64,000 bases of DNA from Ignavibacteria bacterium (GTDB lineage: Bacteria; Bacteroidota; Ignavibacteria; Ignavibacteriales; Ignavibacteriaceae), in NCBI GenBank assembly GCA_037447335.1, contig JBBIGV010000011.1, positions 8,191 through 72,190 of the forward strand, in the 5' to 3' direction. Shown here one piece after another: positions 293 through 22,143 of this stretch (its first letter is position 1; every line of letters begins with the position of its first letter). Below the pieces are notes generated by a model. That model made no database searches. It was not told the origin of the DNA and saw only the letters and a list, made by a program, of their open reading frames with translations. A program made the position numbers and the translations under genes.

Positions 293-958
293 TCACTTCA
301 TCTTGTATAACTGCCACCACGGTGTTCCCGGCGCCTCATGATGCTCATGATACCCGAAGAAATAACAGCTTAACATCGCAAGCAGATGATTTGGTTTCTG
401 TGTCCGCGCCTTGTGAGGTTCCATCTCCTCAGTATGCGGAAGCATATGCGGGCGATAGGTGCCGAAGTAAAAAAGCTGCAGTGTTCCGAGGAATGCAGGT
501 ATAACCCAAAAACCCCATATTGACGCTTCATTAAAATGCAGCTTTAAATAATTGAATGCTACAGCCATAATGATAAGCTGCATTACTGTTGTATATCTCC
601 AGAGAAAAATTCCCCACCAAATAAAAAAGTTTTGTGATTTCATTTAAAAATCAGGATCATTCTTTTCCCCGGGCGATTTGTGATGCCTGAAGTGATTCTC
701 CTGAAGCTTTTTATAAGACAGTCCGGCAAATAAAAACGATGATATAATTCCCAAAAACCTGTTTACGTTCTTATTCTTTGATATATTACCATGCATTGCA
801 TCATGACCGGTAATAAACAAACCGGTGTACGAGTACGCCTGTATCAGAATGTGTATATAAAATACCGGCGAGAGCGTATCAACATTTACATAAGTCAATA
901 TGTAATACAAGTGAAGAAGCCACGCAGTTATAATTGTTACAGCTATTAATATTCCCAT
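293..958 (-). pseudogene. crtW: CrtW-type beta-carotene ketolase interrupted by one in-frame TAA
   Basis: ORFs 644..958 and 293..643 abut in the same frame and are split only by TAA at 644..646. The joined product carries the ketolase His boxes HDAMHG, HFRHH..DPDF and GYHEHHE. Confidence 0.8.
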
Positions 959-995
959 CTTTTAATATCCGTTTGGTTAATCTGTTATTTTAATT

Positions 996-1640
996 TTATA
1001 TGAACAGCATGAGCAAAATAAAAAAGACAAGCTGTATAATAAAGTAATGATCAAGGATTGCGTAAGATATCTTTAACCTGAGCAAGCCGGTAAAAAGTGT
1101 TGAAATGAAAGTAATACCAAACCATGCATAATAATTTTGTATCGGAATTATATTGTTTCCCCAGTTCCAGTAACCGAGCTTCATAGCCACAGGTTCAAGC
1201 ACCATGTCAAACAACACTGCAAGAGTTGAAGCCAGCAAAGCCACAAGAAAAACATTCCGGTCAATTGTATATGCAATGCTGATTGCGCCGAGCATTACCA
1301 TTACCCAATTAAAACCGATAATCAGCGGCACTTCAAATAACTTTAAGCCTAGAACATCGCCATAAGAATACTCACCAAATATTACTCCTGTTTTTACACC
1401 GTAAGCTTCAAGAATAAAAGTTACTAAAAATGTAATCACAGCCCAGAAAAACAATTTAACATTTGCTTCACGTAAAACAACGTAAAACACAACCGATCCT
1501 GTAATTAAAAGCGTATAGGGTGTCAGCAATAACATCAAACTTTTTAATGAAGCCAACAAATGCCCTATTGTTCCGACAATAAAGATCAGGTATAAAAAAG
1601 AGATTGCTTTTGATTCTGTTAATATTTTCTGTCTTTCCAT
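996..1640 (-). CDS. polytopic carotenoid biosynthesis membrane protein, CruF-like 1',2'-hydratase candidate
   Basis: 214 aa, all transmembrane helices, with a GVIFGEYSYGDVLG..VPLIIGFNW motif. It is embedded in the carotenoid operon and overlaps the upstream gene by 22 nt. Confidence 0.55.
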   Translation of the reverse strand: MERQKILTESKAISFLYLIFIVGTIGHLLASLKSLMLLLTPYTLLITGSVVFYVVLREANVKLFFWAVITFLVTFILEAYGVKTGVIFGEYSYGDVLGLKLFEVPLIIGFNWVMVMLGAISIAYTIDRNVFLVALLASTLAVLFDMVLEPVAMKLGYWNWGNNIIPIQNYYAWFGITFISTLFTGLLRLKISYAILDHYFIIQLVFFILLMLFI

Positions 1641-2707
1641 AATACTTTGCGCGTACGGGTTTTTATAAGTGAGCGTACACCCAATATAAACATAATTATT
1701 ATCTGGAATGGGTGCAGGCTTAGATTTAATACTACCTGCTGCCTGCTTTTTAATGAAACTAAAATTCTGTTCGCGATAATCATGAAGGATGCAATATAAA
1801 CTGCTGCAGATGCCGTCATAATAACCGGAGATAAAAATACCAGTGTCAAAGCAAGCAGTAAAAGAATAAATACAATTGGTGATGTATTAAATCCTGCGTA
1901 AAAATTTTTTGTAAAGCCGTTAAATGCTTCAATGATCCCGCCGTACATCCTGCAAAATATATAATCGCCTCCGAGGAGTGTGATTATTTTAACCTTCTTA
2001 TGCTTAACTGATCGTGCAAGCTCCATGTCTTCAACCAGTTTGTTTCTGACTGCAGCGTGCCCGCCGGAATCTTCATAAGTTTTTCTGTCCCAAAACATAA
2101 ACTGACCATTGGCGGCTACAAATTCCTTTCTGTCCGAGGTGAGCACCTTTTTAAGGGGAAGAAAACTTAAGAGCAGCCAGTTCATAAGAGGGACAGTCAA
2201 TAGCTCTCCAAATGACTTGATGACCTGCGTTGGAAATACCGTAAGCATCTTTGCGTTATTAGCAATCCTTTGTTTTGCAGCGAGAGAAACAGCCTTGCGC
2301 TTCAGCTTTACGTCAGCATCAATAAATAAAAGGAGATTGCCGCCTGAGGCTTTATACAACTGATGGCACGCAAAATTTTTTCCGAGCCAGCCTGAAGGAA
2401 GAACCCCGCCTTTTATTAGTTTAAGGTTTTTAAATTCAGGCAGCATGGCTTCAACTATCCCGGCAGTATTATCGGTTGACTGATCGTCAAGTACAATAAC
2501 TTCATTAATTTTTATATCTTGATCCAAAACACTTTCCAGACACTCTTGAATATTCTTCGCTTCATTTCTTGCCGGAATCAGAACCGATATTTCTGCATCA
2601 ACCTCAAAGTTATTGTATGTCGGCTTTATTTCCGGGGCAGTAATAAAATTGTATGCCGAAATAATTACTGCGATGCCAAGCGGTACAAGAAACAGGAATC
2701 CAAACAT
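1619..2707 (-). CDS. family 2 glycosyltransferase, CruC-like carotenoid glycosyltransferase candidate
   Basis: GT2 signature LIPARNEAKNI..VIVLDDQSTDNT, with flanking TM helices and an operon context next to an acyltransferase. Confidence 0.65.
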   Translation of the reverse strand: MFGFLFLVPLGIAVIISAYNFITAPEIKPTYNNFEVDAEISVLIPARNEAKNIQECLESVLDQDIKINEVIVLDDQSTDNTAGIVEAMLPEFKNLKLIKGGVLPSGWLGKNFACHQLYKASGGNLLLFIDADVKLKRKAVSLAAKQRIANNAKMLTVFPTQVIKSFGELLTVPLMNWLLLSFLPLKKVLTSDRKEFVAANGQFMFWDRKTYEDSGGHAAVRNKLVEDMELARSVKHKKVKIITLLGGDYIFCRMYGGIIEAFNGFTKNFYAGFNTSPIVFILLLLALTLVFLSPVIMTASAAVYIASFMIIANRILVSLKSRQQVVLNLSLHPFQIIIMFILGVRSLIKTRTRKVLWKDRKY

Positions 2708-3363
2708 TAGCTTTGTAACAGATTATTTTTTCCGGGGACAAATTGAACTTCATCAAGTTTTTTAAGATTTACGTGAATAAGTTTATTGTAATGATCAAAA
2801 TTTTCAATCACTTCGCCGGCAGATAACAGTTCGCCGAATCTGCAGATCACAAATGGTTTTCTCTCATTGCCATAAATAATTTTGAAAGCCGCTATTAATA
2901 CCTGAGTGAAGGGTTTCGTATTAATAAACTTTTTTATTCCCTCTTTAATTGATAATGGTCTTTTATCATATGGTTCAATTTCACCTTGCGGATAGAATAC
3001 CACATAATTAAAGGGTGATTTAAGGATTTCCTGCGTATAGCTTATAGTTTCAATTATGCTTTTAGGGTTATTATGATTTATTGAGTAGGCTCCTACCTTC
3101 CTGAAAAACCAATATTTTTTTAATTGTTCTTCAAGCATCAACAAATGTATTTTTTTATCTGTGAATTTCTTCATCACATAATCTACAAAGAAGCCATCCC
3201 ACCAAGAGAAATGATTAGGTGTAATTACCAAACTCCGGCTGTCATCAATATTTGGTTTATCATTAAGCAGATAAATGCCTGAAAAATTCTTTTTTAATAA
3301 TCTGAAGATATAAAAGTCATACAGGGACCTTGCCCATTTTTTATGTTCGGCTTTAATCAGCAT
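2707..3363 (-). CDS. lysophospholipid-type acyltransferase, CruD-like carotenoid glycoside acyltransferase candidate
   Basis: HX4D acyltransferase motif (NHFSWWDG). There is a 1-nt TAATG stop/start overlap with the glycosyltransferase. Confidence 0.6.
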   Translation of the reverse strand: MLIKAEHKKWARSLYDFYIFRLLKKNFSGIYLLNDKPNIDDSRSLVITPNHFSWWDGFFVDYVMKKFTDKKIHLLMLEEQLKKYWFFRKVGAYSINHNNPKSIIETISYTQEILKSPFNYVVFYPQGEIEPYDKRPLSIKEGIKKFINTKPFTQVLIAAFKIIYGNERKPFVICRFGELLSAGEVIENFDHYNKLIHVNLKKLDEVQFVPGKNNLLQS

Positions 3364-3372
3364 AATCTTTCT

Positions 3373-4828
3373 TTACCAAATCTGAAACAATTTTGCCTGA
3401 GAGAATAACGAGTGGTATCCCACCGCCCGGATGAACACTCCCGCCGCAAAAATTAATCCTTTTACCCACCGGGATTTGTTCGGGTGGCGGAGGAATGCCG
3501 AGTATTTACTATTTGAAGAAACACCGTATATACTGCCCCCGATGCTTACGGTGTACTTTTCAAGCATTGGCGGAGTAAGAAAACTTTCAACTGAAATTGA
3601 GTTTTTCAGATCTATCCCAAGTGCTGCATTAATTTTATTTATGGTTCGCTGCCGTGTAACAAAAAGCTGTTCATCCCAATCCTGACCTGAATCGTACGGA
3701 GTATTTATCATTACAAACCAGTTTTCATATCCTTCCGGAGCATCGCCTTTATTAATTTTGGAAGAAATGTATATATAAATTGTTGGATCTTCAAAACAGA
3801 TTTTCCGGATAAATATATCATCAAATTCTTTTTTGTAATCTTCAGAGAAAAGAATATTGTGAGTTTCAAGTTTATCGTGGCTGCCCTTCACACCCCAGTA
3901 AAACACGATCCCGGAAAGATGGCTCAGGCTTTGTCAATTTCTTTTCGTTTTCCGAATAAACATCTTTCAACAGGTACTGATATGTATAATTCACATCAAC
4001 ATTTGAAATAACTATATCGTAATCCATTTCCTGTCCGTTAACAACAATACCCGCTGCTCTGTTATTTTTAATTAATATTTTTTCACCCCGGGCCTCATAA
4101 TTAATTGTAACACCTGAATCAAAGCATAGTTTCTGCAGCGCTTCTGAAATTGAAATTATCCCGCCCTCCGGAATAAAGGCGCCAAGGTTATATTCTACAT
4201 GAGGAATTATGTTAAGCGCAGCCGGCGCGCGGTAGGGATCAGAACCATTGTATGTAGCATAGCGATCGAATAGCTGTACAGTTTTTTTATCCTGGAAAAA
4301 GGATCTGTTTGCCCTGTGCATTGTTCTGAATGGATCAATCTTGTTTAAGCGTAAAAGTGTACTGACAGCTTTGAGGTTAAAATAAGTTTTTATTGAGGAA
4401 GGATTATTATAAAGAAATAAATCTGCGGTGAGATCATATATGTTTTTACAATATTCAAGATACTTTTTAACAGAATAAGCGTTGTCGGCTGTATTCGTTT
4501 CAATCTCCTTTGCAAATTCATCCGGATCTGAATATGCATTAATTACCGTTCCATCCGGATAAAAATATTTACAAACCGGATTAAGTTCACGTATCTGAAT
4601 ATACTTTTCCATCTGCTTGCCGGCAGAATCAAATAATTCTTTGAGAACAAAAGTCATTGTAAGCAGCGAGGGTCCGGTATCAAACCTGAAACCGTTAATT
4701 AATAGATTGCCTGCCTTTCCTCCAGCCGAATTATTCTGTTCAAATATATCCACTTGAAAGCCTGCGTTAGCCAATCTTATTGCTGCTGAAAGACCGCCCA
4801 AATCTGCGCCTATAACTGCTGCTTTCAT
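3373..4828 (-). pseudogene. CrtD/CrtI-family FAD carotenoid desaturase, frameshifted
   Basis: N-terminal GADLGGLSAAIRLANAG..GGKAG dinucleotide fold (3872..4828). The C-terminal half (3373..3906) is in another frame. The junction ..KPEPS / (I)VFYWGVKG places the shift near 3910..3918. Confidence 0.75.
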
Positions 4829-4829
4829 A

Positions 4830-5498
4830 TTAACCCCGGTGTTTAAAGTAGTTATAGAACAGCAGCCAGTAGGAAATCATTGAGAACGAATAGAAAAAAT
4901 CTTCTGCGGGAATTGTAATGATTCGCAATCCGAAAATTTCATTCTCATTATAAGTAACCACAGGCAGAGAGGTAAGAAAATAATTAACTGCAAGGAAAGG
5001 AATAAAAGTAATCAACATTGTTATCCAGTAAACCCGTGACTGCAGCATTGCAGGGTAAAGATATAATGCAGAGGGAAAAAATACTGCTGTAATCATGAAT
5101 ACTGTAAACGTATAAGATTGATCATTAAATATAATCGCTGCTATCAATAATAAAATTACCGGTATAGCAAAAAATGAACGACTTATTTTTAAATCTTTTT
5201 CCCTGAGGTAGAATGATACGGTTTCGTAAATAAAAATGCAGCTATACGGAACAGTGATAAAGAATAAAATTTCTTCAATTGGTAAACGAAACAGCGTTAC
5301 ACCGGTAACATATGCCGGATTAAAAGCCCAGTCGCCGCGCCATGTTGCAAGCACATCCCAGGCTATATAAACCGGGCTGACTACCATCACAGAATTGATA
5401 TAGTATTTCAGATTTTTATAGAATCGAAGGTTCTTTTCATTTGAAAGCAGGAGAGGAATCAGAATGATAAAAATATTTATCAGAAGATAAACACACAT
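4830..5498 (-). CDS. fused heterodimer-type lycopene beta-cyclase (CrtYc-CrtYd, two lycopene cyclase domains)
   Basis: 222 aa membrane protein with the duplicated PxE(E/D) motif (RLPIEEILFF and IPAEDFFY) typical of CrtYcd. Confidence 0.7.
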   Translation of the reverse strand: MCVYLLINIFIILIPLLLSNEKNLRFYKNLKYYINSVMVVSPVYIAWDVLATWRGDWAFNPAYVTGVTLFRLPIEEILFFITVPYSCIFIYETVSFYLREKDLKISRSFFAIPVILLLIAAIIFNDQSYTFTVFMITAVFFPSALYLYPAMLQSRVYWITMLITFIPFLAVNYFLTSLPVVTYNENEIFGLRIITIPAEDFFYSFSMISYWLLFYNYFKHRG

Positions 5499-6067
5499 CG
5501 TTTTGCCAATGATATAGCAATATGCTTAAGCTCGTTAATATTTTCACTGCTGAGGCGGTTGCTTTCAAGCATAAATTCGATTATTCCTTTTTGCAGCGTA
5601 TAGTCAACTTCTGAATAATCACGCTCTTTAAGCAGCTCCACTATAACCTGCTGATCTTCACGTCGTTCTTTGCCGTAGCCTAAAATTCCCGGAAGATGGT
5701 GAAGAATAGAGAATCTTATAAAGCGGATTTCAAGGTCTCTTGGTTCTAGCTGCACTGATTTTTCAAGTATATCCAGAGCAGATATAACATAACTTAATTT
5801 TGAGAAAGGATTGAAAACGTGTTTTGCTTTCAATGCATCCACTGCGCCATAGTATGCAATTATAATAGGCTGCGGACTTTTGGAATAATTTCTATGAAGA
5901 AATCCCTCAAGCGCTGCAAGCTGGCTTTCATCTTCAACAGCCTGATAAAATAGTTCGCGGTTAATCCTGAGGTGAGACGTATCAACTTTAGATTTTTCTG
6001 AAGTAAACGCGTAGGGAGTCTCATTAAGAATGAAAACGAAACAAAAAACTGCAAAAATTATTTTCAT
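5480..6067 (-). CDS. secreted helical protein of unknown function inside the carotenoid operon
   Basis: Signal peptide MKIIFAVFCFVFIL. ATGA overlap with the crtB stop and a 19-nt overlap with the cyclase start. I recognise no family. Confidence 0.5.
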   Translation of the reverse strand: MKIIFAVFCFVFILNETPYAFTSEKSKVDTSHLRINRELFYQAVEDESQLAALEGFLHRNYSKSPQPIIIAYYGAVDALKAKHVFNPFSKLSYVISALDILEKSVQLEPRDLEIRFIRFSILHHLPGILGYGKERREDQQVIVELLKERDYSEVDYTLQKGIIEFMLESNRLSSENINELKHIAISLAKRCVFIF

Positions 6068-6908
6068 CAGGTTATTCTCAGAATTTTTAATTCAAAAAAA
6101 GTTTTTGCAAACAAAGCAAGCTTGGTAAAATTGGAAACCCTTACACGTTTTTTCATCAGGTCTTTAACCTGAAGTTTTCTGATCTTCTTAAAAAGTATCC
6201 AATAATACATATAGGCTGAATAAACTCCAAGCCTCACACCACCAGGCAACCTCTTAATACCCCAGAATGCAAGTTAAAACTCTTTCTGAATTTCGATTTC
6301 AAGTTTTCGTTTATTCTCATCATCTATCAGCGTCATACTGCTAACCCCCGGCAGATAAATCCTTCCCCGTTCGGCAAGATCGCACTTAATGTCGCGCAAA
6401 AAATTTACTTTTTGAAATGCAGAACCTAGTGCACGCGCCGAAGGGACAAGTTTGTCAAATAATTCATTATCATTCCCACAAAACACTTTCAGGCACATCA
6501 GCCCTACTACTTCTGCGGAACCGTAAACGTAGTCATCGTAATGATCTTTTTCATAATAATTATTGTAAAGGTCCAGCTCCATGCTGTTCAGGAAATCAGT
6601 TATATATTTTTTATCAATCCGGTATTCATTCACAGTTTTCTGAAAAGCGTTCAATACGGGATTAACTGAAATGCCTTCACGGATTGCATATTCAGTATCG
6701 CTGCGGAACTGCATAAGCATTTCACGCCTGTTGTAATTGTAAAAGGAATAAACAATTTCATCAGCAAGTCTAACATAGCCGTAAATTGCGTAAATAGCCG
6801 CTCTGTATGCCGGAGCAAAAACTCTTATACCGAGGCTGAAAGAAGTGCTGTATTTTCTTGTGATTAATTTGCGACTTTATAGCTGGTTTTATGATATAGC
6901 TGTTCCAT
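6067..6908 (-). pseudogene. crtB: phytoene synthase with one frameshift and one in-frame TAA
   Basis: The gene is in three pieces:
- MEQLYHKTSYKVAN* (from the ATG at 6908).
- ITRKYSTSFSLGIRVFAPAYRAAIYAIYGYVRLADEIV...GRIYLP, reached by a -1 shift in an A-run at about 6868..6870.
- LAFWGIKRLPGGVRLGVYSAYMYY..KRVRVS, after an in-frame TAA at 6274..6276. Confidence 0.8.
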
Positions 6909-8384
6909 AATCATTCCGGATTCTTTCTGTTACAAGTTTTGAACTGATTATAACCATAGGCAGCCCAGTGCCCGGTGTTGTTGAGGCGCCAACGTAATAA
7001 AGATTGGGAAGCTTCTCATCTTTATTTTTTGGTCTGAATGCGCCTACCTGCATAATGTCATGCGCTAATCCTAGCCCGGAGCCTCTGTAAAGATTAAACT
7101 TCTTTTCCCAGTCCTCCGGTGTAAATACTTTTTTAACAAGAATATTTTCTTTTATGTTAAAGTTTGAACGTTTGCTTAAATCATCTATTATAATATCAGC
7201 GAGTTCTTGCCGTCGCTCCAGTCAGGGTTGTATCGTCTGTCCGGAACCGGGCAAAGAATAAAAATATTTTCACAGCCTTCAGGTTCACAATCAGATGCAG
7301 ACTTTGAAAGGACGTTCACATAGTAATAGGGTTTTTGCGGACTTACGGATGACGTAAAAATCTTATCTGCATAACCTCTGAAATTATTACCAAGAAAATA
7401 ATTGTGGTGCATCAGCGTATCAACCTTTCCTTTAACACCGAGGTAGATTGTAAATGGTGCGAGCGTCCAGTTCATTTTATCCAGCTTCTGTTGACTGAAG
7501 TTCTTTCTTCCAAGCATTTTGCCTCTGAAAGACGCAGCATCTGAATTCGAAACAAAAATATCCGCATTCCATTCTCTGCCGAGGTTATCCATTACCGAAT
7601 ATATTTTCCCGTTCGAATTAGAAATCATCACTACTTCGGTACTAAAAATAAAGTTAACTCCTTTTTCCCAGAGGATTTTCATCAATTCATTAACCAGCGT
7701 ATACATGCCGCCTTCAACCTTCCAGTAGCCATCATGCCTCATTTCGGTATAGTTAAGCAGAGAATAAATTGCCGGGGTCTGAAAAGGTGTTGAACCCAGA
7801 AAAAAAAGCAACCAGAGAAAAATGATCCTAACCTCGTTGGAATTAAAGTTCTTTTCAACTTCCGACCAAAGATTTCTGAAGAGATAGGGCAGGTGCTTCA
7901 TAGGAACTTTTGTAAGTGTATGCAGATACTTAATCAAACTATCAAAATTTGATTTTACAACTTTGTTCTCTGTTTCGTGAAAAAACTGTCCTGCTCTTTT
8001 AAGATACTGCTCAACTTTACCAGCAAGCCCGGGTTCAATATCCTTAAACTCCTCCTCTAATTTTTGAAGGTCTTTCCAAATTCTATAGGATTTTGGATTT
8101 CTTTCAAAGAATACCTGGTAAAGCGGGTCAAGCGGTGTAAGTTTAACAGGATTTTTTAGTCCGCAGCTATTAAACAGTTCGTCAAACTCATAACTCATGC
8201 TCATAAAGGAGGGACCAAAATCAAATGTAAATCCATCTGTTTTAAGCTGATTAAGCCTTCCGCCCGGTGTTGAATGTTTTTCAATTACAGTTACGTCATA
8301 TCCATCCGTGACGAGCCTGAGGGCTGTTGCCAATCCTCCTAAGCCGGAACCAATAATTATTGCTTTCTTATTCGTTTTTTGCAT
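6889..8384 (-). pseudogene. crtI: phytoene desaturase, frameshifted near the C-terminus
   Basis: N-terminal IIGSGLGGLATALRL..EKHSTPGGR. The C-terminal ADIIIDDLSKR...GSGLGLAHDIMQVGAFRPKNKD..LYYVGASTTPGTGLPMVIISSKL is in a different frame. The shift lies near 7201..7208. Confidence 0.8.
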
Positions 8385-8671
8385 AGTTGTAAGTAAAAAC
8401 GAAATTTTGATTCAATTAGTTCCGTGAAAAGAGCCTTTTTTTAAGAATTATGATAATAAGCTGCTTCTTTCACGGACACTGAATTGTATCAGCAAATTTA
8501 ATTTAAAATATTTCTAATAGGTAGATGAGGGAATCCGGTAGACCAGATGATATTGCAAACTATTTCAGGCGGCAAAACATTGATAACTTCAGGCGGTAAT
8601 TTCGCTATAAAGCCAATATAAATATTCCATTTAATGCAGATAATCATTATTTTTAGAAAAAAATTTAGTAT

Positions 8672-9613
8672 ATGTATTTCAATGAACGGAAATACGCAAA
8701 GCCCTTTTTCAAATGAGCTGGCGGCAAAACGCAGTTGTTAAATCAATTTAAGAATTTCTTTCCCGAAGATTTAAAGAATGGCAAGATTAAGTACTATTAT
8801 GAACCATTTCTTGGCAGTGGTGCTGTTTTCTTTTTTATTGCTCAAAATTATCCGATTAAGAAAGCTTTTTTATCCGATATTAATGAAGAATTAATTCTTA
8901 CATATAATGCAGTTAAGAATGACGTTTCAACTTTAATTAAAAATTTAAAGAAATTAAAGCGGGATTATTATTCTTTAAATGAGAAGTATCAGGAATTATT
9001 TTTCTATAAACACAGAGATACATATAATAAGGAGAAATCTAAAATTGATTTCACAGCGTACTCAAAAGAGTGGGTTGTTAGAGCAGCTCAAATGATTTTC
9101 TTAAATAAAACCTGCTTTAATGGTTTATTCAGTTTAAATAGAAAAGGAGAGTTTAATGTTCCTTTTGGCAGATATAAAAATCCAGGGATTCTTAATGAAG
9201 AAAATCTATTACTTGCATCAGAAGTTTTAAAGATCGCGGAAATCAGCCTAACTGATTTTGAATTGATACAGGAGTATATAACTCATGATTTTTTTGTTTA
9301 TTTCGATCCTCCTTACCGACCAATCAGTAAAACTTCAAGTTTCACATCTTATAGCAAACATGAATTTAATGACAAAGATCAGAAAAGACTCGCAAAGCTA
9401 TTCAAAGAATTGGGAATCAATGGAAATAAATTGATGCTAAGTAATTCTGATCCTCATAATGAAAACTCTTCAGATAATTTTTTTGAAAACCATTATTCTG
9501 ATTTTATGATAGAAAAAGTTAAAGCAAGCAGAATGATTAACTGTAAAGGAGATAAAAGAGGTGCGATAAATGAGCTTATAATTACCAATTATAATTTGGG
9601 AGCAATCCAATGA
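8672..9613 (+). pseudogene. Dam-like N6-adenine DNA methyltransferase with an in-frame TGA
   Basis: MYFNERKYAKPFFK-TGA-AGGKTQLL replaces the near-invariant PFLKWAGGK motif (TGA at 8714..8716). Downstream are EPFLGSGAVFF (motif I) and FDPPYRP (motif IV). Confidence 0.8.
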
Positions 9614-9924
9614 ATTATATTCCTTCACCCAATTATTTTAAAATATATTATACTTATCAAAAATATCCAGATATTTTTAAACCAACCGATAGGGTTCCGA
9701 TCAGGAAGATTAAAATTGACAAAAAGAGATTAGATTATTCAAATGATATTTATGAGGAAACAGTAAATGAAATTATCAATAATTTCCACATAGAGGGATG
9801 GGAACCTATTTTTATCACACCGGATTTTTATTTATCTGATGGTCATCACAGACTAAAAGCAGCGAAAAAGATGGGACTAAAATATATTGATGTAGTCATT
9901 GTCGAATACGAAATGTTAAAGTGA
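9610..9924 (+). CDS. ParB/sulfiredoxin-like nuclease domain protein
   Basis: 104 aa with the DGHHRLKAAKKMG motif. ATGA overlap with the methylase stop. Confidence 0.6.
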   Translation: MNYIPSPNYFKIYYTYQKYPDIFKPTDRVPIRKIKIDKKRLDYSNDIYEETVNEIINNFHIEGWEPIFITPDFYLSDGHHRLKAAKKMGLKYIDVVIVEYEMLK

Positions 9925-9975
9925 CTTTATTAATATTTTAAATGAGCTTTTCATAACTATAACAATGAAGTTTTA

Positions 9976-11129
9976 ATGGCTGGTTATCTTTTCAATTTAG
10001 ACAGCATAAATTCTCTTGAACTTTATATTCATAACGGAATTTATTCTACAAAACTATCTATTCCAGCTGGTGTTTGGAAAAACATCATGAGGCAACATTT
10101 GCTGATTATGCGACAATGAAAGAGGGCGATAATGTTTATTTCTTCATAATTAGGAAAATATATGGGGTTGGTGAGTTGGTAAGTGTTGGACGTGATTGCA
10201 AATATTGCAATTTTCCGCATGCTGGGTTACCTCAGAACTTTGAGTATAACAGCATTAGAAATACTTTACTATGGAATGAGGGAAATTTTAATAATAATCA
10301 AAGATGGATATGTTTGTTTAAGCCAGCTCCTTATTTCTTTAGAAATGGGATTGATATGGATGACATATTATCGTCAAATCCGGATTCTTTTAGGATGCTT
10401 CGAGCTTTTTGGAAGGTATCATTTATCAAATTTGATGATGAAGAAAATCAGGCGTTTAGAGATGCCTTGTTAAAATTCAATCAGGATGCGCTGACAAATA
10501 ATCACAATGACGTATTATTTAATTCTAATTTTAGTGAAATGCATGAGAGATTAAGAAATGATTTTGAATTAGAAAATTATTTGCTTGATGTTGGTCCCAT
10601 ATTAGAAAGTTGTTCTGAGAATAATAAGTTAAAACATGAAATGGCAATTGAGGCTGGTTTATTATACCAATTATCTAATGATCACAATCCAACTGAATTA
10701 ATTTTCGGCAGATGGGATTATTTATCACATCAAGTAATTGCTTTGCCATTTAAACCAATTGATTATATGGATAAAATGGATGTTTTTGGTTATTCTTATA
10801 TTACCGGCTATAATCCTACATAGTCGAACTATCTAGTTATTGAGATAAAAAAAGATGAGGCTAAGATTGAAGATTTAGAACAATTAATGAAATATGTCGA
10901 TTGGATAAAGGATGAATATTGTCATGGTGATTATAATATGATTGAAGCATTTTTGGTAGCATTTAATTTTAACGATAGTCTTATTAACCAAAAAGAAAGC
11001 ATTGCATTTAGAAAATTTACTGTGGGTAGACGTCCCGCAAAATCTTTTGAGTGGACAAAATTGCGGTTGATAAGTTATCAGTTTGATAACAGAGAAAAAA
11101 GAATAATATTTAATCCTATTGATGTTTAA
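9976..11129 (+). pseudogene. PD-(D/E)xK restriction endonuclease-like protein with a possible PUA/EVE-like N-domain; frameshift plus in-frame TAG
   Basis: MAGYLFNLDS..PAGVW (ATG at 9976) shifts frame in the A5 run 10078..10082 into HHEATFADYATMKEGDNVYFF. An in-frame TAG at 10821..10823 precedes YLVIEIKKDEA. The nuclease core is MDVFGY...IEIKK. The EVE-like call is inference only. Confidence 0.6.
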
Positions 11130-11904
11130 TTCAGAAATTAATTTAGAGAATACTTCCATGTGGTCCTTTCCCGAGAGGGGGAAATGGGCAACTCACAATC
11201 CAAAATATCGTGGCAATTTTGCTCCACAAATTGCCCGAAATCTTATTCTTAATTATTCTTCTGAGGGAGAATTAATTTTAGACCCCATGGTCGGTTCCGG
11301 AACAACATTGATTGAAGCAAAACTTTTACATAGAAGTGCAGTTGGAATTGACATTAATCCCGAGGCGGTTGAACTATCTAAAAAAGCGCTTGAGTTTAAT
11401 TATAATACTAACAGCAAACAAGGAGTAATTAAAGGAGATGCAAGAGATTTATCTATTTTTGATGATAACCAATTTGATTTAATAATAATTCATCCTCCAT
11501 ATTTGAATATAGTAAGGTATTCAAATGAATAAATACAGGAAGATTTGTCTTCAATTAGCTCATTACCCAAATTTTGTGATGAAATAGAAAAAGTGACGGC
11601 AGAACTTTACAGGGTTCTGAAACCAAATCGTTATTGTGCAATATTAATTGGAGATACGCGCAAAGCACAACATTATGTGCCTATTTCTTATAATGTAATG
11701 GAAAGATTTCTTAAAGCAGGTTTTGCTCTGAAAGAAGAAATAATAAAAGCACAGCATAACTGTGTTAATTCAAAGCGATGGGAATTAAAAGCAAAACAAT
11801 ACAAATTCTATTTAATAATGCACGAGCATCTTTTCGTTTTCCGAAAACCAAAAGCAGATGAAAATCTTTCAAGAATTTCATGGTCAATGAAAAAGAGAAG
11901 CTGA
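11122..11904 (+). pseudogene. N4/N6 DNA methyltransferase with an in-frame TAA
   Basis: LDPMVGSGTTLIEA (AdoMet motif I) and IIHPPY (motif IV). TAA at 11530..11532 splits two same-frame ORFs (..11532 and 11545..11904). Confidence 0.7.
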
Positions 11905-11943
11905 AAGCAGCCACACTGCGCTACGCCCACAGGAAGTGAAACA

Positions 11944-14900
11944 TCAGTTATACTCATCCCAGCTTTTTATTGCCAGGCTCCCATCCTTGTAATGCTTCAT
12001 GGATTTAAAAAATTGTTTGGCGAACTGAACATCCGTAAACAATGGAATATTCAGATCAACAGCCTTTCTTCTAATCAGGTAATCATTATCGAGTTCAACT
12101 TTTTCAGCCGTCTTGGGAATATTTATTACAAGATCTATTTTACCTTCTGCCATATAGGTGAGTATTGAGGGCTCCTGATTCTCGAAGGTCCTGAAAAGAG
12201 GAGTTACTTCAATACCGTTCTGTTTATAGAAATCGGCGGTGCCTTTGGTGCCATAGAATTTGATTCCAATGTTCTGAAGGTAAACCAATTCCTCGATAAG
12301 TTCAGCCTTGCTTTTTAAAACACCTGTTGAAAGCATAATGGCTTTTTGGGGAATTCTGTATCCCGTTGACATAAGGCTCTTTAAAAAAGCCTCGTTAAAA
12401 TCATCGCCAAGGCATGCAACTTCACCAGTAGATGACATTTCAACACCGGTAACAGGATCGGAGCCTTTTAATCTTGTAAATGAAAATTGTGATGCCTTCA
12501 CTCCAACGTAATCAACATCAAAAGACGTCCTGTCTATAATGGGGACTCGCTCGCCCATCATAAGTTTTGTTGCTATTTCAATAAAATTAATTTTTAGTGT
12601 TTTTGAGACGAACGGAAAACTTCTTGATGCACGCAGGTTACATTCTATAACTTTAACTTCATTATCTTTAGCAATAAATTGAATATTAAAAGGTCCTGTT
12701 ATGTTGAGTTCTCTGGCTACTTGTTTTGTTATCAACTTAACACGACGAATCGTTTCCAGATAAGTACGCTGCGGAGGTAAAACCAGCGTTGCATCACCCG
12801 AGTGAACTCCGGCATTTTCAACATGCTCTGAAATAGCCCAGCAAAATACTTCACCATTGTTAGCTACAGCGTCAACTTCAATTTCTCTGGCATCAGTAAT
12901 AAATTTGCTGAGCACAACGGGATGTTCCCTGTTCAGATCGGTAGCTTTTTTAAGATAATCATCCAGTTCGTCTTCAGTAAGGACGATGCTCATTGCTGCA
13001 CCGCTCAGAACATAACTCGGTCGTATAAGAACCGGGTACGTGACTTTATTTGCAAATTCTTTTGCATCTTCGAGGGTCGTTACCTCTTTCCATTCCGGCT
13101 GATCAACGACAATTCTGTCAAGGATATTCGAAAACTTGTGCCGGCTTTCTGCATTGTCTATCTGTACAGGAGATGTGCCAATAATTTTTATACCGGCATT
13201 GTGCAGCCTCATTGCAAGATTATTTGGTACTTGCCCCCCCATGGAAATTATCACGCCTTCCGGTTTTTCTTTTTCATAAATATCAAGAACTCTTTCAAAG
13301 GTTAATTGTTCAAAGTATAGCTTGTTACATATATCATAATCCGTCGAAACAGTTTCAGGATTACAATTGATCATTATAGTTTTGAAATTAAGCTTGTTAA
13401 GTGTCATCACTGCATTAACACAACACCAATCGAACTCAACTGACGAACCAATCCTGTAAGCTCCGCTTCCAAGAACCACAATCTGATCAGGCTCACTGCA
13501 GACAATATCATCATCTTTTCCATGATATGTCAGGTACAGATAATTTGTTTGTGCAGGGAATTCAGCAGCCATAGTATCAATTTGCTTAACTACCGGTAAA
13601 ACCCCGAGTTCTTTTCTTCTATATCTGACCGCCATTTCATTCGAGTTTACTAATGCAGCAATTTGCTGATCCGAAAATCCGTTTTTCTTTGCCTTATGCA
13701 TGAGAGTTTCATCAAGCTCACTTAGCTTTTTACCGGAGATGATTTTATCCATTTCAACAATGTTCTTCATTTTATAAAGGAACCACCTGGTGATTTTAGT
13801 TAAATCGTAAATCCGGTCAATTGAGTAGCCCTCCTGAAGAGCCTGGGCAATGGCGAATATCCGTTTATCGGTTGGATTAGCTAGTTCTTCATCAAGGTTT
13901 TCAAATAAGAAATCGTTACCAACAAAGCCCGCTTTGCCAACTTCGAGCATTCGGATTGCTTTCTGTAAAACTTCTTCAAAGCTTCTGCCAAGCGACATAA
14001 CTTCGCCAACAGATTTCATTTCGCTGCCGAGCTGTGTACTTACTTTTTGAAATTTTTGCAAGTCCCATCTGGGAAATTTTAATGCAATGTAATCAAGCGC
14101 CGGTTCAAAACAAGCTGAGGTTTCCTGCGTGATAATATTTACAACTTCATTGAGTGCATAACCAAGTGCAAGTTTTGTAGCAATGAATGCAAGAGGATAG
14201 CCGGTAGCCTTTGAGGCTAATGCAGAACTTCTGCTTAAGCGTGCATTTACTTCAATTATTCTGTAATCATCGCTGTTTGGATCAAGAGCATACTGAATGT
14301 TACATTCACCGATAACCCCGAGATGTCTTATCAGCTTTATACCGATAGAACGAAGCTTAAAATTTTCCTGTGCTGATAAAGTCTGAACCGGTGCAACAAC
14401 CACACTATCTCCTGTATGGATTCCCATCGGGTCAATATTTTCCATTGAGCAGATGGTAATGCAATTATTGTATTTATCGCGGACAATTTCGTACTCAACC
14501 TCTTTCCATCCGTAAAGAGATTCTTCAATCAAAATTTGTTTTGTGAATGAAAATGCACGCTTTGATTTTTCGATAAGTTCCTGCTTGTTGTTTACTATTC
14601 CGGATCCCAATCCCCCAAGCGCATAGGCTATACGAACCATAACCGGAAAGCTGATTTCTTCTGCTGCTGCGACTGCTTCGTCAACAGAACGAGCAGTTTT
14701 GCTTCGAGCAACTTTTAAACCAACCTCCCCGCATCGCTTTGCGAACAGGAAGCGGTCTTCCGTATCTTGAATTGATTCAACGGGAGTACCGAGAACACGT
14801 ATATTATATTTTTCAAGTATTCCCTGCTCATATAGTTCAACTCCAACATTCAGTGCAGTCTGTCCACCGAACTGAAGCAGTATGCTGTCCGGTTGTTCTT

Positions 14901-15138
14901 TTTGAATTATCTTTTCAACAAATTCTGTTTTAATGGGAAGGAAGTAAACTTTATCAGCAAAGTTTTCGGATGTTTGAATTGTTGCAATGTTAGGATTAAC
15001 AAGTACGGACGTTACCCCGTCTTCTTTGAGCGCTTTTATTGCCTGGCTTCCGGAGTAATCAAACTCGCCTGCCTGCCCGATCTGCAATGCTCCTGAACCG
15101 AGGATCAATACTTTTTTGGGCTTACCTTTTTTTATCAT
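11944..15138 (-). CDS. carB: carbamoyl-phosphate synthase large subunit
   Basis: Intact 1064 aa product with duplicated ATP-grasp halves and a C-terminal MGS-like domain. The alignment-quality match to CarB is recognisable throughout. Confidence 0.95.
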   Translation of the reverse strand: MIKKGKPKKVLILGSGALQIGQAGEFDYSGSQAIKALKEDGVTSVLVNPNIATIQTSENFADKVYFLPIKTEFVEKIIQKEQPDSILLQFGGQTALNVGVELYEQGILEKYNIRVLGTPVESIQDTEDRFLFAKRCGEVGLKVARSKTARSVDEAVAAAEEISFPVMVRIAYALGGLGSGIVNNKQELIEKSKRAFSFTKQILIEESLYGWKEVEYEIVRDKYNNCITICSMENIDPMGIHTGDSVVVAPVQTLSAQENFKLRSIGIKLIRHLGVIGECNIQYALDPNSDDYRIIEVNARLSRSSALASKATGYPLAFIATKLALGYALNEVVNIITQETSACFEPALDYIALKFPRWDLQKFQKVSTQLGSEMKSVGEVMSLGRSFEEVLQKAIRMLEVGKAGFVGNDFLFENLDEELANPTDKRIFAIAQALQEGYSIDRIYDLTKITRWFLYKMKNIVEMDKIISGKKLSELDETLMHKAKKNGFSDQQIAALVNSNEMAVRYRRKELGVLPVVKQIDTMAAEFPAQTNYLYLTYHGKDDDIVCSEPDQIVVLGSGAYRIGSSVEFDWCCVNAVMTLNKLNFKTIMINCNPETVSTDYDICNKLYFEQLTFERVLDIYEKEKPEGVIISMGGQVPNNLAMRLHNAGIKIIGTSPVQIDNAESRHKFSNILDRIVVDQPEWKEVTTLEDAKEFANKVTYPVLIRPSYVLSGAAMSIVLTEDELDDYLKKATDLNREHPVVLSKFITDAREIEVDAVANNGEVFCWAISEHVENAGVHSGDATLVLPPQRTYLETIRRVKLITKQVARELNITGPFNIQFIAKDNEVKVIECNLRASRSFPFVSKTLKINFIEIATKLMMGERVPIIDRTSFDVDYVGVKASQFSFTRLKGSDPVTGVEMSSTGEVACLGDDFNEAFLKSLMSTGYRIPQKAIMLSTGVLKSKAELIEELVYLQNIGIKFYGTKGTADFYKQNGIEVTPLFRTFENQEPSILTYMAEGKIDLVINIPKTAEKVELDNDYLIRRKAVDLNIPLFTDVQFAKQFFKSMKHYKDGSLAIKSWDEYN

Positions 15139-15227
15139 TTTGTTTTAGCTTGTATTGTTATGCCGAACTGTTTTCAGCATGCTTTTTAAATTAACTATCC
15201 CGAAAACGTTACGGGAGGTATTTTGTG

Positions 15228-16298
15228 TTATTTTAATGCACGTACGAACATATCAAAAATAAATTCACAGTCATCAGGACCGGGCGAAGCCTCGGGATGA
15301 AACTGTGCAGCAAAGTACGGTTTCGATATATGAATTATCCCTTCGTTGGTACCGTCATTGTCATTTACAAACCACTCGCGCCAGTCTTCCGGTAAAGTAT
15401 CTGACTGCACAGCATAACCATGGTTCTGAGAAGTTATATAACATCTCTTTGTTCCAAGTTCATTGCAAGGCTGATTGTGCCCGCGGTGACCATACTTCAA
15501 CTTGTAAGTATCTGCGCCTGCTGCAAGCGCAAGTATCTGCGAGCCGAGACAAATACCGAGTATGGGCTGACCATTTCGTAATGCTTTTTTTGTATGTTCT
15601 ATTGCAGCTACGTTCATTTTAGGATCACCGGGACCGTTTGATAGCATAATACCATCAGCTTTTACTGTTGTGAAGTCGTAATCATAAGGAACTCTTATTA
15701 CGGAAATATTACGTCCTAAAAAAGCTTTTATTATGTTGTTTTTCGTACCGCAGTCAACCAGAATTACTTTCTTTTTTCCTTTTCCATATTCGATTGGGTC
15801 TTTAATGCTGACTTCAGAAACCAGGTCCGATTCATTTGGACCATTAAACCCCGGGTCGTTCTTATCATCAATAATTATTTTACCGGGCATTGTTCCTTTG
15901 TCACGCAATTTTCTGGTCAGCATTCTTGTATCAATTCCTGTAATACCCGGTATTCTTTTCTCTTTCATCCAATCGGCTAATGATCTTTCTGCATTCCAGT
16001 GAGAATATTCTTCTGAATAATCGGACACAACTAATGCCCTTATATGAATATTTTCAGATTCGAAGAATTTGTGCAAACCGTTTTCATCTTTATCCGACGG
16101 CGGTACGCCATAGTTTCCGATTAGTGGATACGTGCATACAAGTATTTGTCCGCGATAACTTGGATCGGTGAGAGTTTCAGGGTAGCCAACCATACCGGTA
16201 TTGAACACAACCTCGCCATGTGTATTGCCGGGAAAACCGAAAGATTTTCCTGAAAAGATTGTTCCGTCTTCTAATATTAGCTTTGCTTGCTTATCCAT
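15228..16298 (-). CDS. carA: carbamoyl-phosphate synthase small (glutaminase) subunit
   Basis: 356 aa with the GATase catalytic site GICLGSQILA and HRGHNQP. It lies upstream of carB. Confidence 0.95.
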   Translation of the reverse strand: MDKQAKLILEDGTIFSGKSFGFPGNTHGEVVFNTGMVGYPETLTDPSYRGQILVCTYPLIGNYGVPPSDKDENGLHKFFESENIHIRALVVSDYSEEYSHWNAERSLADWMKEKRIPGITGIDTRMLTRKLRDKGTMPGKIIIDDKNDPGFNGPNESDLVSEVSIKDPIEYGKGKKKVILVDCGTKNNIIKAFLGRNISVIRVPYDYDFTTVKADGIMLSNGPGDPKMNVAAIEHTKKALRNGQPILGICLGSQILALAAGADTYKLKYGHRGHNQPCNELGTKRCYITSQNHGYAVQSDTLPEDWREWFVNDNDGTNEGIIHISKPYFAAQFHPEASPGPDDCEFIFDMFVRALK

Positions 16299-16354
16299 TT
16301 CTTCTATTCTGCTTTAACACAAAAGAATAATATTGCCCAAAAGTGTAACCCATC

Positions 16355-16385
16355 AAAACAAAAAAATAGCCCCATAAGCGGGGCT
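16355..16385 (-). terminator. rho-independent terminator downstream of the T9SS cargo gene
   Basis: On the minus strand, an AGCCCC-GCTTAT-GGGGCT hairpin is followed by a T-run (plus-strand A-run 16355..16367). Confidence 0.6.
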
Positions 16386-16558
16386 GCTTAAAAACGAACT
16401 TTATATTTATATAAGATAGCGTTTTGATTTTCTCTTACCTGTGTTCCTGATTTTGGTTTGCAAATATAAGCGCATCAGCCAATTTCTGCAAGAATTCTAT
16501 TTGCTTCAAAAAAATTTCCTGATTTGAATGCATAGTATAACTTCAAAAGAATTAAAGC

Positions 16559-18292
16559 TTACTTCATCAGAATAAACTTTTTGGTGTCAGTATATTCGCC
16601 TGCTGTAAGCCGGTAGAAGTACACCCCGCTTGTCAGATCTAATAAATTGAATGATACGGTTGAGAACTCAACGCTGTGAGACCCGGCTTCTTTATATTCA
16701 TTTACCAACGATGCTACTTCCCTTCCAAGTAAATCATACACCTTCAATGTTTGAAAAGAAGAGACAGGCGATTGCCAACTGATAATGGTGCCTGAGTTGA
16801 ATGGATTTGGATAATTCTGCTCAAGTAAAAACATTAGGGGAATGTTAACATCAGCTTCAATTTCATTTGAATAAGTGAAAGCGCCATCAAAGTCAATTTG
16901 TTTGAGCCGGTAGAGATATTTGCCTGAATAAATCGTATTATCAATAAAAGAATATGAATGGTCTGAAGTTGATGTACCATTACCTTCCACAAAACCAATC
17001 CGGTTAAATTCTCCTATTTTATAACCATCAGGATCATAAGAATCGGCACGTTCAATTTCAAAGCCGAGATTATTTATTTCGGAAGCGGTAATCCATGATA
17101 ATTTCACGCTTCTGTCAATTACACTTGCAGTGAAGCTGACTAATTCAACCGGGATAACTTCGGGTACGTATGCAGTGGATTCATTTCCATAATAGCTCAA
17201 TATACCTGCGCTGGAGACGGTACATACTCTGTATGAATAAGTCTGATTCAAATCAACGTCATAATCTTCATAAGTAAAAGTGTTTGAATTGGCGGTATGA
17301 ATAGTAACGAATGTTGTTGTATCTGCAGGCAAGCCTTTCTTTCTTTGAATTTGGTAACCTGCAATCGGTTCCGGACTAAAACCCGTATCCCAGTTTAAAG
17401 TAACTTTCTGCACGTCGTAATGTGCAGAAGCACTAAGGAAGGTCGGCGGTCCTGGAGGGGTTAACATCGAAGATACATTTACATTATCAAAATAGAAAAA
17501 ATCAATATTATTTGTATTACCTTTATAATAAAATCCCAGGCGGAAACTGCCCGGTATATATAAATTGAGATATTCGGATGATGGACCTACATTACCGGTA
17601 GCATGCAGCTCCCAAATTGATGTCCATGAATTACCATCATCAAGCGTATAGGCAAATCCGACCACGCATGTATCAGACCACCAGTCAAGAAAATATTTGA
17701 ATGACAAAAACAGATAAAGATTCGCAGCCGAAGGAATTTCCGGTGACATTATATAACTCTTACCGTTGAATATTGGTGTCCAGAAGAAAACCATTTCTCC
17801 CGGCTGCCCGCCGGCATTAGCTGTATTCTTCCTGTCCCAATTGTTTAATCCCTGGGGTCCTTTAACCACCCATCCATCCCAGCCTGTTGCAAAAGTAAAT
17901 TCTTCAAAAAAAACAAATGGCGCCAGAGAAGTAAAATACCAAACCGGCGAAACAGAATTACCTGAACCATCAAACTCAACAACGCGCCAGTAATATCTTG
18001 TATTCTGAGTAAGATTTCCATAGGCTGACAGATGAAAAGATGTTGATGCAGTGGCTGGATATCCGTTTTGAACTCTTACAGCAGTATCAAGATTCGCAAC
18101 TTTTAACGAGTCATTGCTGAAATAAACTTCATTGTAAATTGCAGCGGAAGGATTTTCCCAAATCAAGTTATGGTTGGTCAAATGGATCCCTTTTGCTCCC
18201 GGGGCGGTTGAAGGATTTGTTGCGCTGCCCGGTCCCTGCGCAAATGATAGATTAGTGCTCAGTAAAAAGAAAATGGTAATGAATGATCTCAT
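16559..18292 (-). CDS. secreted multi-domain protein with a T9SS C-terminal sorting domain
   Basis: Signal peptide present. The C-terminus reads LEQNYPNPFNSGTIISW..KVYDLLGREVASLVNEYKEAG..GVYFYRLTAG..KKFILMK. Confidence 0.8.
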   Translation of the reverse strand: MRSFITIFFLLSTNLSFAQGPGSATNPSTAPGAKGIHLTNHNLIWENPSAAIYNEVYFSNDSLKVANLDTAVRVQNGYPATASTSFHLSAYGNLTQNTRYYWRVVEFDGSGNSVSPVWYFTSLAPFVFFEEFTFATGWDGWVVKGPQGLNNWDRKNTANAGGQPGEMVFFWTPIFNGKSYIMSPEIPSAANLYLFLSFKYFLDWWSDTCVVGFAYTLDDGNSWTSIWELHATGNVGPSSEYLNLYIPGSFRLGFYYKGNTNNIDFFYFDNVNVSSMLTPPGPPTFLSASAHYDVQKVTLNWDTGFSPEPIAGYQIQRKKGLPADTTTFVTIHTANSNTFTYEDYDVDLNQTYSYRVCTVSSAGILSYYGNESTAYVPEVIPVELVSFTASVIDRSVKLSWITASEINNLGFEIERADSYDPDGYKIGEFNRIGFVEGNGTSTSDHSYSFIDNTIYSGKYLYRLKQIDFDGAFTYSNEIEADVNIPLMFLLEQNYPNPFNSGTIISWQSPVSSFQTLKVYDLLGREVASLVNEYKEAGSHSVEFSTVSFNLLDLTSGVYFYRLTAGEYTDTKKFILMK

Positions 18293-21777: not shown

Positions 21778-21822
21778 TATAATTTTAAGAGATATTATCA
21801 ATTTGAGTAATAGCATCTTTGC

Positions 21823-22143
21823 ATGTTGCGTCATAATGAAAGATTACAATGTGTTCCTGCTCAGTTTGCCTTGTATCAAAACTATCCCAACCCGTTCAAT
21901 CCAGTAACAAGTATGCAGTATGCAATAGACGGCCCGCCTGACGGCGAGGCTGGTAGGCAATTTGTAACCCTATAAGTTTATGATGTTTTGGGCAAAGAAG
22001 TTGCAACGCTTGTTAATGAATATAAAGAAGCAGGCAAGCACTCTGTTGAGTTCAATGCAACGGGACTTCCTTCAGGAGTTTACTTTTACAGGTTAAACGC
22101 CGGCAGCTTCTCCGAAACGAAGAAGATGATATTGCTGCGGTAA
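21823..22143 (+). pseudogene. orphan T9SS C-terminal sorting domain fragment with an in-frame TAA
   Basis: VPAQFALYQNYPNPFNPVTSMQY...VTL-TAA-VYDVLGKEVATLVNEYKEAGKHSVEF..GVYFYRLNAGSFSETKKMILLR, with the TAA at 21973..21975. No cargo domain lies upstream. Confidence 0.7.

Follow-up and report, generated by a model that had tools for sequence, protein, structure and literature searches.

Why should a small set of restriction-modification (R-M) genes carry an inactivating lesion in every enzyme gene, while the short ParB-like gene among them stays open? The question is raised by four co-oriented plus-strand genes (methylase, ParB-like protein, nuclease, methylase) at positions 8672-11904 of a 64,000-nucleotide stretch from an uncultured Ignavibacteria bacterium (contig JBBIGV010000011.1), the whole of which is called the window here. 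An original prediction, made from the letters of the sequence, had described this block as an AT-rich islet of unusual arrangement, possibly disarmed after its acquisition. Our analysis favours a plainer answer, namely that the block is very probably a recently dead, horizontally acquired GATC-type (DpnII/MboI kind) Type II R-M cassette with an architecture that is unnamed yet found repeatedly. The locus itself is a routine case: the genome is losing genes it can spare, and this acquired defence cassette is among those that decay. The interest lies in its intact relatives, a reader-fold nuclease family and a ParB-like methylase companion that are uncharacterised yet widespread.

Genes of the block and their lesions

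The block is bounded on the left by the start of crtI (minus strand, 8384) and on the right by carB, a convergent gene whose stop is at 11944. Its first gene (8672..9613, plus strand) is a pseudogene of a Dam/DpnM-like D12-class N6-adenine DNA methylase, with matches to PF02086 (1.4e-56), TIGR00571 (267 bits; cut-off 115) and the PADLOC models MTase_II and oMTase. Among proteins of solved structure, its intact ortholog is closest to DpnM from the DpnII system (2dpm, 6.7e-50), with E. coli Dam behind. The D12-class methylase by which DpnII/MboI-like Type II systems are recognised is present in this block, though disrupted: the translation reads MYFNERKYAKPFFK*AGGK, and a TGA at 8714-8716 (codon 15) replaces the tryptophan of PFLKWAGGK, which is kept in the intact relative on metagenome contig L015. 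The second gene (9610..9924, plus strand) encodes a ParB/Srx-fold protein of 104 aa with a DGHHR motif; its open reading frame (ORF) is uninterrupted and translationally coupled to Dam, overlapping the Dam stop through ATGA.

The third gene (9976..11129, plus strand) is a pseudogene of a 384-aa two-domain nuclease. Homology leaves the start frame about 35 codons after 9976, and tblastn places the frame switch, a one-base shift, inside 10077-10098, which contains a run of five adenines at 10078-10082 (residues 1-38 and 35-383 of the homologue align in two frames). Further downstream, a TAG at 10821-10823 stands where 20 of 21 homologues have lysine or arginine. The fourth gene (11122..11904, plus strand), which begins before the nuclease gene ends, is a pseudogene of a second DNA methylase (M2) of the N6_N4 family (PF01555, 1.1e-29; PADLOC MTase_II PDLC03376, 5e-75 over the full length). 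Motif I (GSG) precedes motif IV (HPPY) in M2, the protein is 83% identical in amino acids to its intact L015 counterpart, and a TAA at 11530-11532 occupies a position at which intact relatives have lysine.

Read across its lesions, the nuclease has 1369 homologues of about 384 aa (55-63% identity; 99-100% coverage), which come from many bacterial and some archaeal phyla and of which every named one is labelled hypothetical. The phage collection contained no homologue, and the literature yielded no paper on this family or on a third gene in Sau3AI-like cassettes. An AlphaFold2 (AF2) model of an intact homologue, P0001, has two domains (predicted local distance difference test, pLDDT, 87; predicted template modelling score, pTM, 0.86). 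With Foldseek, the N-terminal domain matches MJECL36, YTH domains that read N6-methyladenine (m6A) and the EVE-type enzyme VcaM4I, and the C-terminal domain matches NucS/EndoMS, with D270 and E291-x-K293 invariant. By these structural matches the protein belongs to the PUA-type (YTH/EVE/SRA) reader-domain-plus-nuclease kind, and the PUA/EVE-like N-domain joined to a PD-(D/E)xK nuclease, for which the original prediction had called for structure prediction, is borne out by the model.

Two assignments to known nuclease families were rejected. As a NucS/EndoMS mismatch endonuclease the protein stays below threshold (NucS_C 18.7 bits, Pfam cut-off 24; PRK04247 17.9 vs 216) and its N-domain has a different, YTH/EVE-like fold. 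As a DpnII/MboI-family endonuclease it lacks any match to the DpnII family (PF04556), and it represents a different, unnamed family.

All the lesions named above had been called from the sequence and were found exactly where they had been placed. Could they be sequencing or assembly artefacts, or recoding signals in a cassette that still works? The frameshift does sit in a homopolymer, and a TGA in place of tryptophan would be expected under readthrough or a code-4-like reading. Nevertheless, an independent Logan assembly of run SRR11582151 (L027) equals window 4074-16823 at 12,749 of 12,750 bases without a gap; its sole mismatch is at 4788, outside the block, so that every block lesion is reproduced and the 249-aa nuclease fragment is likewise encoded there. 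A change of genetic code or a recoding was rejected because TGA, TAG and TAA all serve as lesions, for which no single reassignment accounts, and because carB and about 45 other window genes are open under table 11. The lesions are also concentrated in accessory genes, unlike the outcome of random error. The lesions of the four-gene block are confirmed as genuine at assembly level, and a functional cassette hidden behind errors or recoding is hardly credible.

Recurrence of the cassette and its ParB-like member

The closest relatives of the ParB-like protein (69% identity) are encoded on two metagenome contigs. In L015 the order is Dam, ParB-like, a 186-aa ORF together with a MutH-like gene, and M2; in L018 a 65-aa ORF precedes the ParB-like gene, after which come a PDDEXK_11 nuclease and M2. 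DNA identity to the window is 72-82% for Dam, ParB-like and M2 on these contigs, while the middle slot is unrelated and the genomic contexts are other ones. An intact locus comes from a Mariniphaga metagenome-assembled genome (L038), which contains Dam, a ParB-like gene (44% identical), a 385-aa nuclease (66% identical to that of the window), a MutH-like nuclease and M2. Generally, Dam lies 6-33 nt upstream of the ParB-like gene in the metagenome loci, followed by a slot of 0.5-1.3 kb and then M2, and across these loci the slot is filled by MutH-like genes, PDDEXK_11 genes, the 186-aa protein or unknown genes. Dozens of metagenome contigs contain this Dam-ParB-like-[variable nuclease]-M2 arrangement. 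The methylase-ParB-nuclease-methylase (M-ParB-R-M) order is not peculiar to the host genome; it is a modular cassette that recurs elsewhere and whose nuclease can be exchanged. At least four unrelated nuclease types have been exchanged in the slot while the flanking methylases stay as similar in DNA as stated above, and the cassette set offers a natural series of probable isoschizomers as well as a handle on recombination of R-M modules.

As to the slots themselves, that of L015 holds the 186-aa protein, which has no Pfam match, and a short MutH-like ORF; the latter is about 50 N-terminal residues shorter than its L038 counterpart and may itself be damaged. The regions in question are 1634-2819 of L015 and 339-1331 of L018.

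How far does this cassette resemble the characterised GATC systems? The DpnII system of Streptococcus pneumoniae (dpnM-dpnA-dpnB) likewise pairs a Dam/DpnM-like D12 methylase with one of the N6_N4 family. In the MboI system the genes are ordered M-R-M, an order shared by the window cassette. It differs from both in that its nuclease is of another family, an extra ParB/Srx-fold gene is placed between Dam and R, the enzyme genes are pseudogenes, and M2 is weakly DpnA-like with motif I followed by motif IV. The original prediction had held that the arrangement is not a textbook Type II cassette; this goes too far, since two-methylase GATC layouts are known (DpnII is M-M-R; for the logic of having two methylases see PMC3573125 and PMC4738411) and the ParB-like gene recurs in many cassettes.

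For the ParB-like protein, the AF2 model (pLDDT 95.5) gives Foldseek matches to pNOB8 ParB-N, sulfiredoxin, CDP-bound ParB, PadC, Noc and KorB, all with probability 1.0 and template modelling (TM) scores of 0.5-0.59, by which the predicted ParB/Srx fold of the 104-aa protein is confirmed. At the level of sequence profiles, the protein remains below the cut-offs of Pfam ParB_N and NCBIfam parB (parB_part 17.7 bits; cut-off 58), and other matches, to DUF1015 (20.6 bits; cut-off 25.8) and SerK (26.7 bits; cut-off 380), are sub-threshold as well. A profile search collected 113 representative members of the family, mostly stand-alone proteins of 90-150 aa. The possibility that DGHHR is a damaged DGQHR motif was rejected, as DGHHR occurs in 5 of these 113 representatives.

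The ParB-like family is tied to methylases in two ways. Fused forms exist with both methylase kinds, namely a D12 (Dam) methylase followed by the ParB-like domain (P0141) and the ParB-like domain followed by an N6_N4 methylase (P0170). Moreover, when 80 metagenome loci of the family were examined, 70 proved to have a Dam and/or N6_N4 methylase as neighbour. Within the ParB/Srx superfamily, ParB N-domain-methylase fusions of phages and plasmids offer the nearest parallel, with the same fold and with fusions to D12 and N6_N4 methylases, and links between ParB and methylases were noted previously (PMC4738411). The window protein differs from other members of the superfamily as a stand-alone protein of 104 aa with a DG(Q/H)HR motif and without helix-turn-helix (HTH) or dimerisation domains. 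On the question whether the ParB-like gene takes the place of an HTH controller protein, a tblastn search, too insensitive a test to decide it, had matches at 10 of 80 and 2 of 80 loci. Judged by fusions and linkage, the ParB-like protein is probably a methylase-linked accessory factor, and it may act together with the methylases because it is fused to both kinds elsewhere.

Genomic context of the nuclease family and the probable recognition site

In the proposed mechanism, the two methylases would modify the recognition sites of the host, most probably GATC, and DNA entering the cell without this mark would be cut by the 384-aa nuclease via its NucS-like PD-(D/E)xK domain, with the YTH/EVE-like N-domain as a putative DNA- or base-reading module. 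The context of the nuclease family was surveyed in 80 species-representative genomes, and 73 of the 80 loci lie in a GATC-type context (Dam, N6_N4, C5 methylase or Sau3AI-family genes). Dam-linked loci account for 21 of 80, including 18 two-gene Dam-nuclease cassettes that have no other nuclease and spacers of about 10-30 nt. A C5 cytosine methylase and a MutH/Sau3AI-family endonuclease are both present in 45 of 80, and loci linked to either of the two number 50. Beside the 21 and the 45, the 80 comprise 7 loci with partial versions of the Dam or C5/Sau3AI contexts and 7 in which no methylase was detected.

The homologues placed between a C5 methylase and a Sau3AI-family gene are 47-55% identical to the window nuclease. 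For example, Pedobacter glucosidilyticus DSM 23534 (L063, 2393-6554) encodes an HTH protein, a C5 methylase, a 389-aa protein and a Sau3AI-like protein in overlapping genes. The same order is found on plasmid pCM008-D of Clostridium tagluense (L118), where RefSeq lists a "hypothetical protein" beside a "Sau3AI family type II restriction endonuclease" and dcm. Sau3AI-type GATC systems, which consist of a C5 methylase and a Sau3AI/MutH-family endonuclease, are in this way related to the cassette twice, because homologues of its nuclease are embedded in them in the 45 genomes and because MutH-like nucleases also fill the slot of sister Dam-ParB-like-M2 cassettes. The window itself differs from them, with no C5 methylase or MutH/Sau3AI-family gene and with methylases of the adenine/N6_N4 type. 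GATC is the most probable recognition site by linkage, because MutH/Sau3AI-family nucleases fill the slot in sister cassettes, the Dam ortholog is nearest to DpnM and the GATC-type context prevails in the survey.

Comparison of Dam-linked (n=19) with C5-linked (n=47) homologues gave 116 shared conserved positions and 0 group-specific ones. The idea that the reader domain was retuned between subfamilies linked to m6A and to 5-methylcytosine (m5C) was rejected on this result, and the nuclease seems to do the same job in both settings, since no position separates the two groups.

Is the nuclease blocked or triggered by methylation? The 384-aa protein might be a modification-dependent, Type IV-like nuclease whose YTH/EVE-like domain reads methylated DNA, in which case the block would not be a classical R-M pair. 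The best structural matches of its N-domain (MJECL36, YTH m6A readers and VcaM4I) point that way, prokaryotic fusions of YTH/EVE-like and PD-(D/E)xK domains have been described as restricting modified DNA (PMC7641849), and the loci in which a methylase is absent nearby would fit as well. A reader-fold N-domain fused to, or working with, a nuclease is likewise known from the EVE-HNH enzyme VcaM4I, from MspJI and from YTH-McrB of Thermococcus gammatolerans (PMC7641849). Those systems are solitary and cut modified DNA, whereas members of the window nuclease family nearly always share an operon with a methylase: 73 of 80 loci adjoin methylases, and the stand-alone position typical of Type IV PUA-domain nucleases is not what was found. 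Moreover, the 18 tight Dam-nuclease pairs would be lethal to their own host if cutting were set off by m6A at that site, and the lack of any residue separating Dam- from C5-linked subfamilies argues against tuning to one methyl mark. The Type IV-like explanation is therefore improbable. For the Dam-type cassettes, linkage favours methylation-blocked over methylation-dependent cleavage, and because of its nearly constant operonic association with a methylase the whole nuclease family is most likely blocked rather than triggered by methylation.

Several observations weigh against reading the block as a dead GATC-type R-M cassette with such a nuclease. A TGA at a tryptophan codon could allow low-level readthrough, so that Dam is perhaps not fully null. 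M2 is weakly DpnA-like, as its match to solved DpnA (8e-6) is partial and the motif order is permuted. The PADLOC search proposed in the original prediction recovered the methylases through its MTase_II and oMTase models and gave no restriction endonuclease match for the nuclease, which is outside every characterised restriction-enzyme family. In addition, 45 of 80 genomes place the nuclease inside an already complete pair of C5 methylase and Sau3AI-family endonuclease, where its role may differ from that of a plain restriction enzyme. Finally, the fold of the N-domain is otherwise known from modification-dependent nucleases (PMC7641849), which is odd beside a methylase partner.

This combination is what makes the nuclease family attractive, with a modified-base-reader fold encoded beside methylases and often as a third gene inside Sau3AI-type systems. 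A bolder interpretation, which we regard as tentative and rather less likely to hold than to fail, is that the reader-fold nuclease is licensed by an unmodified flipped base, opposite to the characterised PUA-domain nucleases. It would then serve both Dam (m6A) and Sau3AI-type (m5C) GATC systems, and the ParB-like protein would count as a methylase-associated factor of a new kind, by which a modular cassette type is defined.

Acquisition and decay of the block

The GC content of the block is 30.6%, and 3.2-kb windows across the genome average 38.0% (standard deviation 1.8%), with 0.16% of them as low; the AT-richness that was first noticed by eye is real. Among 40 relatives at the level of family or order, none had a DNA match to the block; the collection compared contained no further genome of the genus of the source organism. 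Because of the low GC content, this absence and the unrelated genomic contexts of the sister cassettes, the block is supported as a horizontally acquired Type II R-M module, and the original view of it as an acquired island stands.

The left boundary spacer (8385..8671, plus strand) is the intergenic region from the crtI start to the cassette, and the similarity to the sister cassette of L015 starts only at 8690, inside the Dam gene. The right boundary spacer (11905..11943) is 39 bp long and ends where carB, convergent and intact, has its stop codon. Around the block, neither repeats nor an integrase nor a tRNA was found. Comparison of the crtI-carB junction, by which the insertion was to be demonstrated, was informative in part: the relatives have no match to the block, but carB and crtI are non-adjacent in all of the 6+4 nearest genomes, so that no clean insertion site is definable. 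T9SS (type IX secretion system) cargo genes occupy the 5' side of crtI in relatives.

When did the enzymes fail? Against intact relatives, the cassette genes have ratios of nonsynonymous to synonymous substitution (dN/dS) of 0.03-0.12 with dS saturated, and the branch of the window is no longer than others. Of 115 invariant positions, 3 are altered in the nuclease, within the range of intact homologues (0-4). These low ratios and the few changes at invariant positions show, as far as substitution patterns can tell, that the cassette genes were under purifying selection until recently and that their inactivation is recent.

The decay is not confined to the cassette. At least 12 lesions were counted in the 64 kb, 8 of them nonsense, which is an unusually high nonsense share; all are in accessory genes, and housekeeping genes are intact. 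Among the carotenoid genes, crtW is broken by TAA 644, a crtD-like desaturase by a frameshift near 3914 (in relatives a single gene corresponds to the ORFs 3872-4828 and 3373-3906), crtB by TAA 6274 and crtI by a frameshift near 7205. Two T9SS cargo genes are affected too, a remnant of a C-terminal domain (CTD) at 21814-22140 with TAA 21973 and an Asp-box propeller gene at 57190-58407 with TAG 57577 and TAG 58147. Because crtW, the crtD-like gene, crtB, crtI and these two cargo genes are broken as well, the decay of the cassette is ordinary, part of a general loss of dispensable genes. Each enzyme gene would have gained its one or two inactivating mutations recently, within a wider neutral decay of the dispensable genes of this lineage.

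The original prediction had instead considered a post-segregational disarmament of the defence module. In such a scenario, the toxic nuclease would have been lost first under selection, the methylases would then have become useless, and the ParB-like gene would have been kept as co-opted by the host. It draws on the fact that all catalytic genes are hit and the small gene is open, with two lesions in the nuclease and one in each methylase. That the ParB-like gene is intact and the enzymes are broken is true, but it is not statistically meaningful: random placement of four lesions over the four genes leaves the ParB-like gene untouched with a probability of 0.66, and gives the full pattern, three enzymes hit and ParB spared, with a probability of 0.28. 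Lesions are similarly dense in the carotenoid and T9SS genes, which are unrelated, GATC may already be protected by another, intact Dam-family gene of the host (C17:41811-42683), and no relative is close enough to order the events. Selected disarmament is thus very unlikely and is not required, as general decay of dispensable genes accounts for the pattern.

The carotenoid operon (window 296-8384), decayed as it is, is otherwise syntenic with that of four family relatives. The second Dam-family gene elsewhere in the host genome encodes 290 aa with an intact PFLKWPGGK motif and is 43% identical to the L015 Dam protein. Divergent from it lie a gene for an N6_N4 methylase of 459 aa and an ORF of 300 aa (C17:41811-45422), and these genes are probably another R-M system. 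The Dam-family gene in it is a possible source of continuing GATC methylation and, if GATC-specific, could have ended any addiction to the cassette. GATC occurs in the host genome at an observed/expected ratio of 0.73, which is mild, and 6 times in the block against about 9 expected, values that are uninformative on past restriction. Other palindromes are avoided more strongly than GATC in the host genome, with observed/expected ratios of 0.14 for GGCC, 0.34 for CTAG and 0.58 for CATG, and the avoidance of GGCC suggests that a HaeIII-type system has long been part of its history.

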